Below are positions 6,900-29,156 of a stretch of 64,000 nt of DNA, piece by piece. The position numbers and the translations under genes were made by a program. Source of the DNA: a virus (taxonomy: Duplodnaviria; Caudoviricetes). Numbering within the stretch: position 1 is the stretch's first letter; every line of letters begins with the position of its first letter. Under the pieces are notes generated by a model. It worked only from the letters and a program-made list of their open reading frames with translations. It was not told where the DNA came from and made no database searches. The DNA lies in the IMG/VR virus record IMGVR_UViG_3300026549_000056, positions 1 to 64,000 of that record, one strand, 5' to 3'.

Positions 6900-6970
6900 G
6901 CAGCGATCGTTCAATGGTAGGATGGGGGTCTCCAAAACCTTTAATCTAGGTTCGAATCCTAGTCGCTGTG
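6900..6970 (+). tRNA. tRNA-Trp(CCA)
   Basis: cloverleaf with CTCCAAA loop and G73. Confidence 0.9.
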
Positions 6971-7501: not shown

Positions 7502-7641
7502 AAGACGTTTACAGCAAAGCAAATACTTTCTTTTAGATATGATAACAAGAATCATTAAAAAGGGTTGAAATAGAGAGCCGTTAAGGGGATCGTGGTAAAT
7601 CGCCTTATCTAAGGAATGAAGAAACCCCCTAGTAGCGTCTT
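7502..7641 (+). ncRNA. ACAGCAA-motif RNA copy 1 (candidate Y-RNA-like)
   Basis: AAGACG...CGTCTT closing stem with TTTACAGCAA right after the 5' strand. Confidence 0.45.
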
Positions 7642-8581: not shown

Positions 8582-8653
8582 GGCCCGTTAGGCAAGCGGC
8601 TAAGCCATTGCCCCTTCACGGCAAAGGCGCCAGTTCGACTCTGGCACGGGCTA
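8582..8653 (+). tRNA. tRNA-Glu(TTC), C33
   Basis: TTGCC-CCTTCAC-GGCAA; D arm TAGGCAAGCGGCTAAGCC. Confidence 0.9.
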
Positions 8654-9533: not shown

Positions 9534-9596
9534 TAAGCGCGAACAGCAACTTTTACAAGGGATTGAATGGTAATCAATTAAACTTTAATGCGCTTA
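9534..9596 (+). ncRNA. ACAGCAA-motif RNA copy 2
   Basis: TAAGCGC/GCGCTTA stem followed by GAACAGCAA. Confidence 0.45.
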
Positions 9597-9610: not shown

Positions 9611-9683
9611 GACGCTTACAGCAATTACTTTTATTCTTGTGCTTCGCGCCTACGGCGCTCAGTAAAATAATATAGGGGGCGTC
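9611..9683 (+). ncRNA. ACAGCAA-motif RNA copy 3
   Basis: GACGC/GCGTC stem followed by TTACAGCAA. Confidence 0.45.
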
Positions 9684-11633: not shown

Positions 11634-11976
11634 CTTCTAGCGCAGTAATACCTGAATTGACAGGTTATATCCGAGCAGCATTGACATGCAAAATTCATGA
11701 CAATGCTAGCGATTGACTCCGGGAGAGCGGTAGCGCTGAGGATGACTTACTCCGACAGGACTAATAAAGTAAGTAGAACAACCTGCTGCTGTAGATAGCT
11801 CGAAGGCTATGAAAAGACAATATTTGACTTAAGCATTAGGGACAGATGAATACTTCTATGCAACCCTATTAAGTCAGCCGTTAAACTCGGCAGGCAGCAC
11901 TTTCAGAGTGGTCGTGTTGGGTTGTAGATGCCATTTATGAGAATAATATGCAAGCGCAACTAGACCACTCTGATAT

Positions 11977-12051
11977 GCCCTTGTAGCCCAATTGGTAGGA
12001 GGCAACTGACTTAGGATCAGTACAGTGCAAGTTCGAATCTTGTCAAGGGTA
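11977..12051 (+). tRNA. tRNA-Leu(TAG), short variable arm
   Basis: ACTGA-CTTAGGA-TCAGT. Confidence 0.85.
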
Positions 12052-12195
12052 TGAACCGTCTAGAGAAAACTTCAGTCACTCTCTAGAAAAAACTTAGCCA
12101 AGGTCAATAGTAAGTCTGAAGTGCTATTGAATATTGTGGTGTGTAAAGGTTAGGCTAAATTGGTTAGACTCCGCCACATATTTCTTAATTAAATG

Positions 12196-12333
12196 CACGT
12201 CTTAGGCAAGCGGTCTAAGCCGACGGTCTCCAGTCCTTAGTTTACAGGAAACTAGCTTTTAGCTAATTCGAGGGCAGCACTCGAAGGATTGTTAAAACCG
12301 TAGACACCAGTTCAAATCTGGTAGACGTGACCA
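12196..12333 (+). tRNA. Glu-type tRNA body with a 62-nt insert in the anticodon loop; candidate amber suppressor after splicing
   Basis: CACGTCT/AGACGTG-A-CCA; D arm almost identical to tRNA-Glu(TTC); ACGGT/ACCGT stem enclosing CTC[insert]TAAA. Confidence 0.7.
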
Positions 12334-12384
12334 CCTCCTTTCTTACTAGTGTTCTAGGAGGCTAAATTAGAAACACTAGATAAT

Positions 12385-12470
12385 GGAGTCGATCCGGCTA
12401 GATGAGGAAGCTGTCCTGAAAACAGTTGGGCGCGATGAGCGCCTTGTGGGTGCAAGTCCTACCGGCTCCG
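12385..12470 (+). tRNA. tRNA-Ser(TGA), C33
   Basis: GCTGT-CCTGAAA-ACAGT, long variable arm, G73. Confidence 0.85.
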
Positions 12471-12670
12471 CTTGGTGGAACTACCCGCCAACTGTAAATA
12501 AGGGATTGCAACCCAGTAGAAAAATATCTGACTCTAGGCTTAAAGAGGGTAAACATACAGCAGGTCGGGGATGCGATCGGTTACATGGCTGTTGCAAGTA
12601 AAGAAGAGAAGCAGATACTCGCAAGGGTGTCGCGGGGCAGCTCTACAGCTACATTCCACAAGCCCCATTA

Positions 12671-12761
12671 GCGTCAATACTCAAGTCTGGTGAAGAGGGG
12701 GCACTGCTAACGCCCTAGGCCGAGGAAACTCGACGCGGAGGTTCGAATCCTTCTTGGCGCG
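12671..12761 (+). tRNA. tRNA-Ser(GCT)
   Basis: CTGCTAA loop, long variable arm. Confidence 0.85.
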
Positions 12762-12763
12762 CT

Positions 12764-12882
12764 GCGACAAGTAGCTCAATAGGTAGAGCACAGTATATAG
12801 GTTGTCTAGACCTAGACACGAACAGCTACTTTTTTCTGGCATATGGGGCCTGGTGTTGTAGGTTCGAATCCTACCTTGTCGC
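12764..12882 (+). ncRNA. tRNA-mimic RNA (YrlA-like) with extended arm replacing the anticodon arm
   Basis: canonical D arm (GCTCAATAGGTAGAGC), T arm (GTAGGTTCGAATCCTAC) and acceptor, but a roughly 60-nt arm carrying CTAGACACGAACAGCTA. Confidence 0.6.
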
Positions 12883-12909
12883 CTGTCTAAAAAATAGGAG
12901 GGTTATGAT

Positions 12910-13266
12910 ATGAGTGGAACTTTACCTCGTTATAGACGTAAGAGCGTAATGACTGATGATTATTCTGGCGATTAGGTCTTAGGATTAAATGACCAGATTA
13001 CCATAGTTGATGACATTGTTTATATCGGTGGTGTATCAACTGGAATAAATGTCCGTGGTAGTGAAGGAAAATCCGCTTACCAAATAGCAGTAGAACATGG
13101 CTTTACTGGAACTGAAGAACAATGGCTAGCTTCTCTACAGGCAAAAGATGGTCAGACTTGCTGGGAAAGAGCGCAACAGGTTGTACCTAATATTCTTTCT
13201 GAAGCAGGTATTACTACAGAAGAAGAATTTTATAAACAGATACTACAGAATATTGATACATTTTAA
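12910..13266 (+). CDS. virion-protein-like ORF (GKSAYxIA...GFTGTEEQWLASL motif), one in-frame TAG
   Basis: AGGAGG RBS; motif typical of phage fibre/collagen-like proteins; missed by the track because of the TAG. Confidence 0.6.
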
Positions 13267-14624: not shown

Positions 14625-14783
14625 TTATGTATATGATCGGAAACCATATACAGAATGTTTGCCTTGAAGGTTGCCCTAGTCGGGAATGTGTACACCCCTC
14701 TAAAGTAGTGAATCTAGATTCTTTGGGAATATATCCACACAAGGCCGGTTGTAAGAGGTAAACCGTATAAAACCTCTTATTTT

Positions 14784-14855
14784 GTTTCTATAGGCTAATA
14801 GATAGACCATAGCACTACAGATGCTAGAATGAGCGTGCAAATCGTTCTAGAGACA
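14784..14855 (+). tRNA. Arg(ACG)-like tRNA with ACA anticodon
   Basis: TAGCA-CTACAGA-TGCTA; Arg-like D loop (GATA). Confidence 0.6.
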
Positions 14856-14858
14856 TAT

Positions 14859-14933: not shown

Positions 14934-15004
14934 ACGGGTATGATGTAATAGTAGCATTTACCCCCTCCAAGAATAAGGTGTGGGCACACATCCCATTATC
15001 CGTT
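14934..15004 (+). pseudogene. degenerate tRNA-Gly(TCC)
   Basis: CCTCCAA loop, broken anticodon stem, aberrant T loop CACACAT. Confidence 0.55.
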
Positions 15005-15008
15005 TGAT

Positions 15009-15079
15009 GTTCTTGTCGTTTAATAGTAGGATGACTGGTCGCAACCCAGTAGATCTTGGTGCAATTCCATGCAAGAACT
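15009..15079 (+). tRNA. tRNA-Cys(GCA), C33
   Basis: ACTGG-TCGCAAC-CCAGT; U73. Confidence 0.75.
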
Positions 15080-19821: not shown

Positions 19822-19892
19822 GCCCGTTAATATAATGGTTTAGTATGCGAGTTACCAAACTTGAGATCTAGGTTCGATTCCCAGGACGGGCT
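19822..19892 (+). pseudogene. atypical tRNA, Gly-like, 6-nt loop TACCAA
   Basis: GCCCGTT/GACGGGC-U73 acceptor, D and T arms present, anticodon loop short. Confidence 0.5.
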
Positions 19893-19895
19893 TTA

Positions 19896-19972
19896 AAGAC
19901 TTGGACAGCAAAACATAACATAACAACATAAATTCTGCTTTAAATAGTTGAATTGAATTGCACATGAGTCTT
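19896..19972 (+). ncRNA. ACAGCAA-motif RNA copy 4
   Basis: AAGACTT/GAGTCTT stem followed by GGACAGCAA. Confidence 0.45.
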
Positions 19973-20175: not shown

Positions 20176-20427
20176 ATGTATGCAGTTATTGATAGCCAAA
20201 CTAACCAGTATTTTTCTCACAATGGAGCTGTAATTTTGTTTGATAGCATTGACCAAGCTGTTACCATTGCTCAGCAATTTTGTGGGTATGCAATGGCACG
20301 GATGATGACTGAAAATCTTGGTCGAATATCTGAGGTGATTGGCTTTAAAAACGCTTTGCAGATAGAAGAGTGGAATTATGAAACTACAGCCGCAGCGACT
20401 GTTTTATTTACCGATTTACAGAAATGA
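20176..20427 (+). CDS. hypothetical protein
   Basis: AAGGAG RBS. Confidence 0.55.
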   Translation: MYAVIDSQTNQYFSHNGAVILFDSIDQAVTIAQQFCGYAMARMMTENLGRISEVIGFKNALQIEEWNYETTAAATVLFTDLQK

Positions 20428-20588
20428 AAAATATTCAACGTAAACCTAAGCCATCAGCTGGTACTGGTTGGAGGTAGATGGCTGCTGGTGGTGTCATAGA
20501 AAAGATAGACATGGATGTGGTTCATGCAAATCTTTAAGAAAATTTAAACGAGACTACAAGGATAAGAAAGAAAAGGAGAAATTTAACT

Positions 20589-21032
20589 ATGACAAATAGC
20601 TTTATGAACGCTCTGAAGAATGATGCTAATTTTACATACACTGAGAATGGGGCGGTAACACATAAGACCACAAACTCAGACGTATATGATATGTTTGCTC
20701 TTGGTGGAGCTTATAGAGACAGGACAGACGAGGATGTTATTCTTCTATTTAAGAACGCACTTGACGAGAACCGCGATCTTGCAATGAAGTGTTTATTTTA
20801 TCTTCGTGACATTTTAGAGGGGCAAGGAGAAAGACGATTTTTTAAAGTAGCTTTTCATTGGTTAGCAATTAATTATCCAGAGATAGCAAGAAAAAACTAT
20901 AAATTAATTCCTCTTTATGGCAGGTATGATGATCTTTATTGTCTTGTAGATACTCCTTTGGAAAAAGAAATGTTTAGTTTTATGAAGCATGAAGTTGCGG
21001 AAGGATTAAAAATTTTAAATGCAGTAAAATAA
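20589..21032 (+). CDS. DUF2828-type (TROVE/Ro60-like) protein, N-terminal half
   Basis: TYTENGA...LFYLRDI..GQGERRFF...YGRYDDL. Confidence 0.8.
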   Translation: MTNSFMNALKNDANFTYTENGAVTHKTTNSDVYDMFALGGAYRDRTDEDVILLFKNALDENRDLAMKCLFYLRDILEGQGERRFFKVAFHWLAINYPEIARKNYKLIPLYGRYDDLYCLVDTPLEKEMFSFMKHEVAEGLKILNAVK

Positions 21033-21166
21033 TAAAAAATTTTTAGTTTATATGCACAAACTTAAATTAGATAGAAGAGTCTACATAGGACAAACATGTA
21101 TGTCTTAAAACAGCTTTTGGTTATCATTGGAAATATCTTGAAAAAGATAATAAGGAGATTTTATGA
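21019..21166 (+). pseudogene. GIY-YIG homing endonuclease remnant (start and end only)
   Basis: KFLVYMHKLKLDRRVYIGQT followed by NUMOD1-like KTAFGYHWKY. Confidence 0.65.
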
Positions 21167-22272
21167 ATAATTATAATACTGGATTAATTTTTAAATGGTT
21201 GAAATCTGAAAACGCTTCTTCAACTGAAACTAAGAAACTTGCAAAAAAGACTCGTGAAGCTTTTAATATGACTGCTCGTGAATATAGAAAACTTCTTTCC
21301 TACGGAAGAGAAAAGACTAAAGTTCTTGAGCGTTTAATGTCAGCAAATGAATGGGATAAAATTGATTTTTCAAAAATTCCTTCCAAGGCAGGACTTGTTT
21401 ATCGAAATGCTTTCGCTCGCCGCGACATTCTTGCTAAGAAGTATGAAGCCTTTGCTAAGAGCAAGGATACCAAGGTAAATGCAGATGCACTGTATCCGCA
21501 TGATGTTGCTCACAGAGCTTTTGCAATGCGTTACAACACAAACCTTGAAGATCCTACTCGTCTTATGCTTCAGAAGTATTGGGATAATCTCAAGGACTTC
21601 TACAATGGCAGAGAAGAGAATGGCATCGCGGTTGTTGATGTGTCTGGCTCTATGACTGGTACTCCGATGGAAGCTGCGGTTTCTATGGGTGCTTATATTG
21701 CAGACAAGGCACATGGCCCGTTCGCAAATCACTTCATCACTTTCTCAGCTCATCCTGAGCTGGTAAGATTTGAGGGAGTCGATATTGTCGATAAGCTCAA
21801 TCGTTGCGTTCAGGCGGACTGGGGTATGAATACCAACGTACAGGCGGTATTTGATATGCTTCTGAACACCGCTATGAAACAGGGTGTAAAGGCTGAAGAT
21901 ATGCCGACCAGAATCTACATCTTCTCCGACATGGAGTTTGATGAGTGTGTATCTTTTGATCGTACCTCTAAGCGTTCTCGTAGCTCTTGGAGTAGATGGG
22001 ATGATTGCCGTACCGTCAATTCTGTTGATGAGGTAAACTCTGATCTTGAGAACATTAAACTGGAGTGGGCACGTCATGGATACCAGATGCCTCAGGTAAT
22101 CTTCTGGAATTTAGCATCACGGCAGAATAGAATCCCTGCGATTGGAGAAGGCTTTAGCTATGTCAGCGGTTTTTCTCCCGTTATGATTGAGAATATTCTT
22201 TCGGGAAAAGACGGTTATAGTTTAATGCTTGATAAACTCCTAAGTTCGCGGTACGATGCCGTTGTAGCTTAA
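21163..22272 (+). CDS. DUF2828-type protein, C-terminal half with vWA domain
   Basis: KWLKSENASS, MIDAS DVSGSM, IFSDMEFD, VIFWN, VSGFS; own AAGGAG RBS. Confidence 0.85.
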   Translation: MNNYNTGLIFKWLKSENASSTETKKLAKKTREAFNMTAREYRKLLSYGREKTKVLERLMSANEWDKIDFSKIPSKAGLVYRNAFARRDILAKKYEAFAKSKDTKVNADALYPHDVAHRAFAMRYNTNLEDPTRLMLQKYWDNLKDFYNGREENGIAVVDVSGSMTGTPMEAAVSMGAYIADKAHGPFANHFITFSAHPELVRFEGVDIVDKLNRCVQADWGMNTNVQAVFDMLLNTAMKQGVKAEDMPTRIYIFSDMEFDECVSFDRTSKRSRSSWSRWDDCRTVNSVDEVNSDLENIKLEWARHGYQMPQVIFWNLASRQNRIPAIGEGFSYVSGFSPVMIENILSGKDGYSLMLDKLLSSRYDAVVA

Positions 22273-27938: not shown

Positions 27939-29156
27939 ATGTTAGATAAAAATGGCACCAGACAATTAGCATACGTTGTAGTTGTTGATACGGTAACTCC
28001 TATTGAGGGGTATGATCGAGTTGAGCTTGCTCATGTTGGCGGCTGGACTATTGTTGTTGGTAAAGGCGAGTTCCATGCGGGCGATCCTGCTATTTATTTT
28101 GAAATTGACTCTAAACTGCCTGAAGTAGAGCCGTTTATTAATATGGAGTTCCTTGCTAAGAAGCATTACAAAATCAAGACTCAGAAGATGTGCAAATCTT
28201 TATCTCAGGGGCTTCTTATGTCCGCCGCGAATTTCGGATGGACGATGGCCGATGGAGCAATCCTTGATTTAGATGGAAACAGACATAGTATTAACGATGA
28301 GTCTCGTTTTCTTACTGCCCAGCTTGGCGTAACTTATGCAGAACCTGGCGATAACAAGAGAAAGGCTACCTCTGTAGATAAGTATAAGAAGATGACGCAG
28401 CGGAATGGTAAACTTTTTAAGCACCAGCCTTTCCGTTGGCTAATGAAGCGGGAGTGGGGCAGAAAAATTCTGTTTGTTTTTTTTGGAAGGAAGCGGGATA
28501 AGAAGAGCAGTTGGCCTAGTTGGGTGTCGAAAACAGACGAGGAGCGTGTTGAGAACATACCTAGCGTATTGATGGATAAGACTGAATGGATAGCGACTGA
28601 GAAGTTAGATGGTACATCTACAACAGCTACTGTTCGAAGAGGTAAGTTTGGTAAATTTGATTATTACATTTGCTCTAGGAACGTAGTTTTCGATAAACCT
28701 GGAAAAAATTGCTTCTACGAGAAAAATGTTTATACTATGATGTCAGAGAAGTATCAGTTCGAGAAGGTTCTGATTGATCTCTGCAAGAAGTACAATCTGG
28801 AGTGGGCAACTCTTCAGGGCGAGACCTTTGGAGGCACTAATCCTCTAATTCAGAAAAACACTTATGATATGAAAGCTTGTGATTTCAGAGGTTTCAATCT
28901 TATCTTTTCTGACAGAGGTAGATTAAATTCTGTTGAGGCTGCGAAGATCATGGCTGAGTATGGAATTAAGTGGGTTCCGATTCTGGATGAGCATTATGTA
29001 CTTCCAGATACTATTGACGAGCTTCGTGCTTATGTTAATAGCCAGCCTTCCACTATCAACGGTAAGATCAAAGAGGGCATCGTTTTTAGATATCAGGATG
29101 GCTCTAAGTCCTTTAAGTGTGTAAGTCCTGAGTATCTGTTGAAATATCATCAGTAA
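27939..29156 (+). CDS. RNA ligase, Rnl2/DRB0094-like
   Basis: motifs TEKLDGTS, LQGE, FRGFNL, KEGIV, FKCVS; N-terminal tRNA-binding-like domain. Confidence 0.85.
   Translation: MLDKNGTRQLAYVVVVDTVTPIEGYDRVELAHVGGWTIVVGKGEFHAGDPAIYFEIDSKLPEVEPFINMEFLAKKHYKIKTQKMCKSLSQGLLMSAANFGWTMADGAILDLDGNRHSINDESRFLTAQLGVTYAEPGDNKRKATSVDKYKKMTQRNGKLFKHQPFRWLMKREWGRKILFVFFGRKRDKKSSWPSWVSKTDEERVENIPSVLMDKTEWIATEKLDGTSTTATVRRGKFGKFDYYICSRNVVFDKPGKNCFYEKNVYTMMSEKYQFEKVLIDLCKKYNLEWATLQGETFGGTNPLIQKNTYDMKACDFRGFNLIFSDRGRLNSVEAAKIMAEYGIKWVPILDEHYVLPDTIDELRAYVNSQPSTINGKIKEGIVFRYQDGSKSFKCVSPEYLLKYHQ

Follow-up and report, generated by a model that had tools for sequence, protein, structure and literature searches.

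How does a phage whose late genes are full of a stop codon read that codon, and can a tRNA gene that is broken in its anticodon loop supply the reader? This question is raised by positions 12196 to 12333 of a phage from cattle rumen, where a tRNA gene is interrupted by 62 nucleotides (nt). The phage is represented by record IMGVR_UViG_3300026549_000056, which is 99,929 bp long and 64% complete (CheckV). The window referred to here is the whole stretch of DNA that was analyzed, namely, the first 64 kb of this record; the phage is common in data sets from cattle rumen, and the stretch was present in 20 runs from 13 studies. The record has a tRNA array of ~10 kb, with ~24 tRNA genes and a transfer-messenger RNA (ARAGORN, Rfam). 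To assess recoding, open reading frame (ORF) lists obtained with translation table 11 were compared with lists in which TAG was read as sense. The minus-strand genes at ~39 to 64 kb are fragmented under table 11 and become ORFs of 700 to 2734 codons with TAG as sense, and the traced late genes are then terminated by TAA or TGA. In the late genes, TAG thus serves as a sense codon, and since these genes are full of in-frame TAG, the phage needs an amber-reading tRNA. None was reported by ARAGORN in its default mode or by Rfam in a scan of the array. The absence of an uninterrupted CTA tRNA from the window, as noted in an earlier reading of this DNA made from the sequence alone (the original prediction), extends to the entire 99,929-bp record at its 64% completeness, and no uninterrupted TTA tRNA was found in either.

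The comparative data presented here indicate that the gene at 12196 to 12333 is very probably a functional suppressor gene from which the insert is removed. Its two exons, the part of it that varies between related phages, the closest paralogue of its body, and its clients are as follows.

12196 to 12230, plus strand: 5' exon (sequence and ARAGORN intron mode), predicted to provide the 5' strand of the acceptor, a Glu-type D arm, the 5' strand of the anticodon stem (12223 to 12227), and C32, U33, and C34
12293 to 12333, plus strand: 3' exon (sequence), predicted to provide U35, A36, A37, and A38, the 3' strand of the anticodon stem (12297 to 12301), the variable loop, the T arm, the 3' strand of the acceptor, A73, and CCA
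12223 to 12301, plus strand: 79-nt anticodon-arm cassette, the sole difference between alleles I1 and U1 (allele comparison)
8582 to 8653, plus strand: phage tRNA-Glu(UUC), closest paralogue of the suppressor body (best pairwise match among the tRNAs of the genome)
39322 to 63815, minus strand: late and structural genes, the predicted suppressor clients, with 3 to 26 in-frame TAG codons per gene

The 7-bp acceptor stem is formed by CACGTCT (12196 to 12202) and AGACGTG (12323 to 12329), hence a first pair C1-G72, and is followed by A73 at 12330 and an encoded CCA at 12331 to 12333. The variable loop, AGAC, has 4 nt, and the T arm reads ACCAG/TTCAAAT/CTGGT. Between them, the two strands of the anticodon stem, ACGGT (12223 to 12227) and ACCGT (12297 to 12301), surround 69 nt where 7 are expected. 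The acceptor, D arm, variable loop, T arm, and 69-nt enclosure were all located where the original prediction had placed them. ARAGORN in default mode misses the gene, and when unspliced, the gene fails the Rfam tRNA model RF00005, for which a 15-bit misalignment is the sole match. With the 62 nt set aside, a tRNA cloverleaf is obtained both from the joined exons and in the intron mode of ARAGORN, which reports a 76-nt tRNA with a 62-nt intron at 12196 to 12333 and prints the anticodon as TTA. The sequence alone leaves the register ambiguous. As anticipated, CCA and TTA are available besides CTA, and all three joined forms pass ARAGORN; the intact tRNA-Trp(CCA) at 6900, which the same prediction had mentioned, is also present.

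The register and the function of the gene are best judged from sister phages. Sister contigs were anchored on a 118-amino-acid gene located just downstream (12910 to 13266), which yielded ~35 contigs from ENA and Logan assemblies, and one JGI contig (L049) was added from a metagenome pattern scan with the closing stem of the insert. With the window counted, 28 informative contigs from many samples and studies reach the locus; one more contig is gapped there. The interrupted 138-nt gene is found in 17 of the 28, and an uninterrupted 76-nt tRNA(CUA), scoring 53.8 bits against the Rfam tRNA model, is found in 11. Both forms occupy one locus, between tRNA-Leu(UAG) and tRNA-Ser(GCU), and no contig has both forms or neither. 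The interrupted form is the commoner one and is found on contigs of 100 to 137 kb from several studies. The comparison is tightest between an uninterrupted allele present in four contigs (U1) and an interrupted allele present in six (I1), which show zero differences outside the anticodon arm. In U1, this arm consists of the loop CCCTAAC between CCTGG and CCAGG, while in I1, the stem strands ACGGT and ACCGT enclose CTC, the 62 nt, and TAAA. Apart from its new anticodon, the U1 loop, CC-CTA-AC, equals that of the phage tRNA-Glu, CC-TTC-AC.

Since the same tRNA occurs uninterrupted in sister phages, the insert would have to be cut out of the interrupted form. These alleles strongly support the view that the interrupted gene is functionally equivalent to a CUA suppressor, and the register appears to be settled in favor of CUA by the I1/U1 pair. 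The search for an insert-free allele in related phages that the original prediction had proposed was thus productive, and its proposal of a Glu-type tRNA with a CUA product is in keeping with the uninterrupted tRNA(CUA) that occupies this locus in sister contigs and is, in one allele, identical outside the anticodon arm. Polymorphisms in the exons of the interrupted alleles retain pairing: the T-stem pair 12306/12322 changes from A-U to G-C, a compensatory exchange, 12197 A>G converts an A-U pair to G.U, and 12325 A>G gives U.G. A C instead of the near-universal U is found at position 33 in both the phage tRNA-Glu(UUC) at 8582 to 8653 (CCTTCAC) and an intron-free suppressor (L078:863-938; CCCTAAC), whereas splicing of the interrupted gene is predicted to give a product with U33.

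A covariance model of the 79-nt cassette (R1) matched once per contig and only at this locus, with no other copy or relative in ~0.9 Mb; since the cassette is found only here, there is no sign of current mobility. Exact-pattern scans of IMG/VR with the exon junctions, with the T arm and acceptor of the window, and with the T arm and acceptor of the commoner allele gave zero matches. A metagenome scan for an insert-free gene with an identical anticodon stem was likewise empty, which is explained by the different stem of the actual intron-free allele. Relatives reached via a virion protein (G001, G003, and G004; 53 to 67% protein identity) have no homologue of the suppressor tRNA, loci reached via a WDGH-domain protein were not syntenic, and those reached via an AAA protein showed nothing informative.

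Which amino acid would such a tRNA insert? The body of the suppressor is of the Glu type, with a 3-bp D stem that contains a 13-22 mismatch and a 4-nt variable loop that lacks position 47. Its D arm is identical to that of the phage tRNA-Glu(UUC) at 18 of 19 positions, and the latter also has a similar T arm and a 4-nt variable loop. The ORFs of the record were translated with TAG as X and aligned, without bias of X toward any residue, to three relatives, two of which (G004 and G001) use the standard code. The residues facing TAG in the three relatives were E at 47, 27, and 29 positions, D at 14, 17, and 10, K at 12, 11, and 6, and Q at 9, 9, and 9. With substitution profiles taken from the same alignments, the log-likelihood favors E over Q by 54, 16, and 27, and in columns where both standard-code relatives agree, E was found 13 times, K 3 times, D 3 times, V once, and Q not at all. 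Genetic code 15, in which TAG is Gln, was rejected on the strength of these log-likelihoods and conserved columns. TAG is most likely read as glutamate, as judged from these alignments, which agree with the Glu-type D arm and 4-nt variable loop of the suppressor; here, too, the original prediction, which had named Glu, is supported. No phage glutamyl-tRNA synthetase (GluRS) was found in the record; charging of the tRNA by a GluRS is conjectural, as is the idea of the original prediction that the C1-G72 pair would keep GatCAB away. A description of TAG-to-Glu recoding in phages was not found in the searchable literature: published phage recodings are TAG to Gln and TGA to Trp, the sole two reported in one study of recoded phages (Borges et al., bioRxiv 10.1101/2021.08.26.457843), and Glu alignments are mentioned only occasionally in the Lak megaphage papers. 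Taken with the Glu-type body of the tRNA, the alignment of TAG codons with Glu suggests a TAG-to-Glu reassignment, which may be a new phage code.

How, then, might the insert be removed? The 62 nt located between C34 and U35 are predicted to fold into a miniature cloverleaf, with the following parts.

12231 to 12292, plus strand: the 62-nt insert, a mini-cloverleaf between C34 and U35 (RNA folds, shuffle test, and alleles)
12231 to 12237 paired with 12285 to 12291, plus strand: acceptor-like 7-bp stem (fold)
12238 to 12239, plus strand: UA linker, in place of positions 8 and 9 (fold)
12240 to 12252, plus strand: D-like hairpin of 4 bp with the loop ACAGG (fold)
12253 to 12265, plus strand: middle hairpin of 5 bp with a 3-nt loop (fold)
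12266 to 12267, plus strand: AU dinucleotide (fold)
12268 to 12284, plus strand: T-like hairpin of 5 bp with the 7-nt loop GGCAGCA, abutting the 3' strand of the closing stem (fold)
12292, plus strand: U at the discriminator position, with UAAA, not CCA, next (fold)

The closing stem and three hairpins are obtained in the minimum-free-energy fold (RNAfold) whether the entire gene or just the loop is folded. The last hairpin would meet the closing stem as the T arm of a tRNA stacks on its acceptor stem. When the 69 nt were shuffled with dinucleotide composition preserved, a three-branched structure with a closing stem of 6 bp or more arose in 8 of 3000 shuffles; in 2 of these 8, the last hairpin abutted the 3' strand, and in none was the 7-nt register also present. 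The predicted geometry is that of a tRNA-like element, with a contiguous stack of 7 and 5 bp, GG in the D-like loop, C at the equivalent of T-loop position 56, and UAAA after U12292. Across the 17 contigs with the interrupted gene, 60 of the 62 positions are invariant, the changes being a loop substitution, 12258 T>C, and one at the junction pair, 12284 A>T; because it is nearly invariant, the insert gives no covariation. The folds thus bear out the three-hairpin junction described in the original prediction, which had overlooked the miniature-cloverleaf shape.

The insert does not resemble the established classes of tRNA introns. At E values of up to 10, it matches no Rfam family, and in a scan of 12150 to 12950, the sole match to any intron family is an 11.7-bit group II fragment located elsewhere. 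A group I intron was rejected, as 62 nt are far too short for the P3-P9 catalytic core, with which such introns usually reach 200 nt or more, and RF00028 has no match at E values of up to 10. A bulge-helix-bulge intron was rejected as well: two helices of the fold are separated by a 3x5 internal loop, and the motif of two 3-nt bulges around a 4-bp helix is absent. Both exclusions, now made with Rfam and RNA folds, had been proposed at the outset. The record contains no tRNA-splicing endonuclease (PF01974; family search) and encodes no RtcB. Self-cleaving ribozymes (hammerhead, twister, hairpin, pistol, and hatchet) were also rejected, with no match at E values of up to 10 and stems that lack internal loops.

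The resemblance of the insert to an ACAGCAA family, suggested earlier, is a weak link, and the bare motif is not enriched: 15 copies are present in the window, compared with 10.4 expected, and 12 of 100 shuffles reach 15. Separately, a terminal stem followed by ACAGCAA was observed in the elements at 7502 to 7641, 9534 to 9596, 9611 to 9683, and 19896 to 19972.

Precursor tRNAs are cut by RNase P just 5' of position +1 and, if they have no CCA, by RNase Z just 3' of the discriminator. Both enzymes leave 3'-OH and 5'-phosphate ends, which are the substrates of Rnl-family ligases. In the mechanism that we propose, the insert would be treated as a tRNA by the tRNA-end enzymes of the host, with RNase P cutting 5' of C12231 and RNase Z cutting after the discriminator-like U12292. 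The exon ends, a 3'-OH and a 5'-phosphate, would be kept together by the outer tRNA fold and joined by an ATP-dependent RNA ligase, for which a phage enzyme of the Rnl5 type is the obvious candidate. The predicted product has the loop CU-CUA-AA, namely, C32, U33, C34, U35, A36, A37, and A38. When applied to the insert, the tRNA end rules remove exactly 12231 to 12292 and leave 3 + 4 = 7 loop nucleotides with U33, CUA, and A37, and the anticodon obtained is that of the intron-free allele. The excision of 12231 to 12292 to give CT-CTA-AA, as originally proposed, therefore agrees with both the end rules and the CTA of the uninterrupted allele. Recognition of the modeled insert by RNase P or RNase Z is plausible, and if the insert is removed, the chances slightly favor removal by these two enzymes.

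The candidate sealing enzyme is encoded close to the array.

27939 to 29156, plus strand: ATP-dependent RNA ligase of the Rnl5 type, candidate sealing enzyme (Pfam and structure match)

It has an N-terminal OB domain (PF21189, residues 11 to 94) followed by a nucleotidyltransferase domain (PF09414, residues 216 to 394), the order of domains in Rnl5 ligases, and matches the Naegleria gruberi RNA ligase 5cot with an E value of 8e-28. Its score against TIGR02306, 82.6 bits, is under the equivalog cutoff of 151. On these grounds, the enzyme, initially called Rnl2 type, is better classified by its sequence as an Rnl5-type (NgrRnl/DraRnl-like) ligase. Rnl5 ligases join a 3'-OH to a 5'-phosphate. As to the earlier proposal that this ligase may seal the splice, a ligase is present and its chemistry fits the ends that RNase P and RNase Z would leave, but the enzyme also occurs with an intron-free allele, and its family is very common, with >7000 close relatives in a metagenome protein collection. 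Co-occurrence of the ligase does not discriminate interrupted from uninterrupted alleles, and the link between ligase and splicing is circumstantial. Given the RNase P/RNase Z route, it is nevertheless fairly probable that the ligase at 27939 to 29156 does the sealing. A Ro60-like protein (DUF2828 and DUF7788; 21163 to 22272) and this Rnl5-type ligase are encoded near the tRNA array and may form an RNA repair module.

The locus is covered by metatranscriptome contigs from four runs of four studies, in which the unspliced gene is present (X15 at 12137 to 12305, X17 at 12104 to 12360, and X19 at 11900 to 12670). The depth of these RNA libraries is very uneven along the array, which suggests that they represent RNA rather than DNA carryover. 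The predicted word at the spliced junction is GACGGTCTCTAAAACCGTAG. One X15 contig that skips 12179 to 12301 was considered as a splice and rejected, as it instead matches the replaced segment of the intron-free allele.

Taken together, an explanation in which a Glu-type amber suppressor carries a mini-tRNA intron that is removed by RNase P, RNase Z, and a ligase is the best one available, and we consider it somewhat more probable than all others combined. Several points weigh against it. What the modeled insert fold has behind it is thermodynamics and the shuffle test only; its T-like loop, GGCAGCA, is non-canonical, and position +1 is C rather than G. The characterized Rnl5 ligases (NgrRnl and DraRnl) seal nicks in duplex RNA and not breaks in anticodon loops, and an 85%-identical ligase is encoded on a 74.8-kb contig that bears an intron-free allele. 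The tRNA introns of Lak megaphages misfit a simple RNase P/RNase Z rule because they have ~26 extra 5' nucleotides. The 12230-12293 junction was absent from the metatranscriptome contigs of all four runs, which is weak evidence, because rare forms are lost from contigs and the capture of mature tRNAs is poor. Finally, a second suppressor is possible in the missing part, because the record is 64% complete.

The alternative that survives best keeps the removal and changes its route: the insert could be excised by a phage or host endonuclease acting at the four-way junction or at the 3x5 internal loop, or by cryptic self-cleavage, leaving 2',3'-cyclic phosphate and 5'-OH ends that would be joined by a host RtcB-type ligase. 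The non-canonical T-like loop, the C at +1, the occurrence of the Rnl5 ligase outside intron-bearing strains, and the misfit of the Lak introns all speak for such a route. It is nevertheless unlikely, as no ribozyme family matches at E values of up to 10, the stems are perfect and short and have no internal loops for a catalytic core, the record encodes neither RtcB nor a tRNA-splicing endonuclease, and it would have to be a coincidence that the tRNA end rules leave exactly 7 loop nucleotides with CUA.

A second alternative is that the gene stays unspliced, as a dead allele or as a tRNA-like RNA, for instance, an anticodon nuclease decoy or a partner of a Ro60-like protein, with TAG read by a host factor or by a suppressor encoded in the part of the genome that the record lacks. 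It draws on the RNA library contigs, which are unspliced only, on the 64% completeness of the record, on the Ro60-like protein at 21163 to 22272 and the other odd tRNA-like genes of the phage, and on the relative G003, which is TAG recoded and in which a suppressor was nevertheless undetected. These points have to be set against the strict replacement of one form by the other at a single locus in 28 contigs, an allele pair that is identical outside the anticodon arm, the prevalence of the interrupted form on 100- to 137-kb contigs of several studies, the retained tRNA pairing in the exons, and a register that yields exactly CUA, all of which make this alternative quite improbable. That splicing instead gives UUA (reading UAA and UAG) or CCA (a second tRNA-Trp) is very improbable, despite a boundary that is ambiguous by sequence, the arbitrary TTA call of ARAGORN, and its acceptance of all three joined forms, as the allelic intron-free gene has CTA, an intact tRNA-Trp(CCA) is present at 6900, the mini-tRNA end rules give CUA, and a UUA reader would be harmful because, with TAG as sense, TAA or TGA terminates the traced late genes.

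The original prediction had proposed that splicing could act as a timed switch to the late code. This idea is unsupported: it is weakened because 11 of the 28 sister contigs do without the insert, which is thus dispensable. The insert may delay maturation of the suppressor but is not required for the code switch, and it rather resembles an optional passenger carried by the anticodon arm.

The tRNA array contains further unusual tRNA genes and introns. A second interrupted tRNA-like gene is located at 12764 to 12883 (46.8 bits against the Rfam tRNA model), with 56 nt where 11 are expected and an 8-bp acceptor that includes G-1:C73; it is 96 to 99% conserved in six sister contigs, and its ARAGORN anticodon varies between alleles (ctg, ctt, and ata). 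Its insert is not tRNA shaped and consists of a hairpin at 12798 to 12814, followed by ACAGCTAC and then six T residues. The tRNA inserts at L013:9093-9213 and at 20360 to 20999 of G003 (IMGVR_UViG_3300032038_000010) have ...TTTTTCT as their last nucleotides, immediately ahead of the 3' part of the loop. In G003, the tRNA is split by ~570 nt that contain a whole tRNA-Lys(UUU) and a homing endonuclease-like ORF; in this TAG-recoded genome, no suppressor was found by ARAGORN in intron mode. Long tRNA introns with endonuclease-like ORFs are present in sister strains (L049:1429-2203 and L066:3076-3811; also L060 and L068). One sister strain has a ~700-nt intron in a tRNA that replaces 12384 to 12470 of the window, and a 663-nt intron with a PDDEXK_5 ORF is found in the tRNA-Pro(UGG) of a sister strain. 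The array as a whole is a mosaic of swapped tRNA cassettes.

In the window itself, 12384 to 12470 is a tRNA-like gene with a long variable arm and the loop CC-UGA-AA, which ARAGORN misses and which scores 30 bits with the tRNA-Sec model. The interval 12512 to 12619, between two tRNA genes, shows a depth peak in the RNA libraries (X15, 200 to 320 versus ~18 in the flanks; X17, 58 to 118) and may be an unannotated stable RNA. A tRNA with an ACCA loop that ARAGORN leaves unnamed is present at 19822 to 19892, a tRNA-like gene that scores 32 bits and lacks a clear anticodon arm at 14934 to 15004, and a tRNA with the anticodon ACA at 14783 to 14856, while a normal tRNA-Cys(GCA) adjoins at 15009 to 15079.

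If the proposed route is true, it would add to the known kinds of tRNA splicing and be the first one in bacteria to dispense with both a ribozyme and a splicing endonuclease; no description of tRNA splicing by RNase P and RNase Z plus a ligase was found in the literature searched. We put forward only tentatively, as somewhat short of an even chance, the two claims taken jointly, namely, a protein-only splicing in bacteria or phages by RNase P, RNase Z, and an Rnl ligase, and the maturation by it of a Glu-type CUA tRNA for TAG-to-Glu recoding. I1 and U1 constitute a natural near-isogenic pair, with the same tRNA body and an intact or interrupted arm, and a tRNA with activity that hinges on the excision of a tRNA-shaped cassette could be of interest for synthetic control of the genetic code.

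Several known systems resemble parts of the proposed mechanism. In the case of mascRNA (MALAT1) and mitochondrial tRNA punctuation, RNase P and RNase Z release a tRNA-shaped fold from a longer transcript by cutting at +1 and 3' of the discriminator. The flanks stay apart in these systems, whereas here they would need ligation to form the anticodon loop. In our Rfam scan, a weak mascRNA-menRNA look-alike fell on one tRNA of the phage array. In the anticodon-loop repair of T4 by Pnkp and Rnl1, a phage ATP-dependent ligase joins a 3'-OH and a 5'-phosphate in a broken tRNA loop. That system uses Rnl1 and repairs damage, whereas an Rnl5-type enzyme and splicing are proposed here, and Pnkp would be dispensable, as the ends left by RNase P and RNase Z could be sealed directly. 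Group I introns in the anticodon loops of bacterial and phage tRNAs, such as tRNA-Leu(UAA), and the bulge-helix-bulge introns of archaea and eukaryotes share with the insert that they hide a tRNA gene from standard finders.

The TAG-recoded phages with code 15 likewise use a phage CUA tRNA for late genes, but TAG is Gln there. Suppressor tRNAs were found in only ~40% of TAG-recoded phages, and non-canonical tRNAs were suspected (Borges et al., bioRxiv 10.1101/2021.08.26.457843). The case described here fits this suspicion, and hidden, intron-split suppressors would explain part of the gap and improve the prediction of phage codes and annotation.

The closest published case is that of the tRNA introns of Lak megaphages, one of which "may encode a tRNA"; these introns have no Rfam match, are identical across cohorts, and were called enigmatic (Devoto et al. 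2019, PMC6784885, Fig. 4 and Table S6). A 2026 survey of jumbo phages similarly noted tRNA introns that "could encode another tRNA" (PMC13037316), and no mechanism was given in either study. The Lak introns and the insert described here are short, located in the anticodon loop, tRNA-like, without an Rfam match, and near identical across samples, and both the Lak phages and the rumen phage have intron-free alleles and an alternative code. The insert has the features of a Lak-type tRNA-shaped intron, namely, a predicted cloverleaf fold, no Rfam match, and 60 of 62 positions invariant. A 9-mer, ACAGGAAAC, that is common to the insert and a Lak intron lies in a different structural context and is probably due to chance. 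The Lak introns of 79 to 93 nt, with ~26 extra nt located 5' of the tRNA-like part, sit in the Tyr and Phe tRNAs of a 540-kb Prevotella megaphage, whereas in the rumen phage, of ~100 to 137 kb, the insert of 62 nt would be a mini-cloverleaf alone, and it is the amber suppressor itself that is interrupted.

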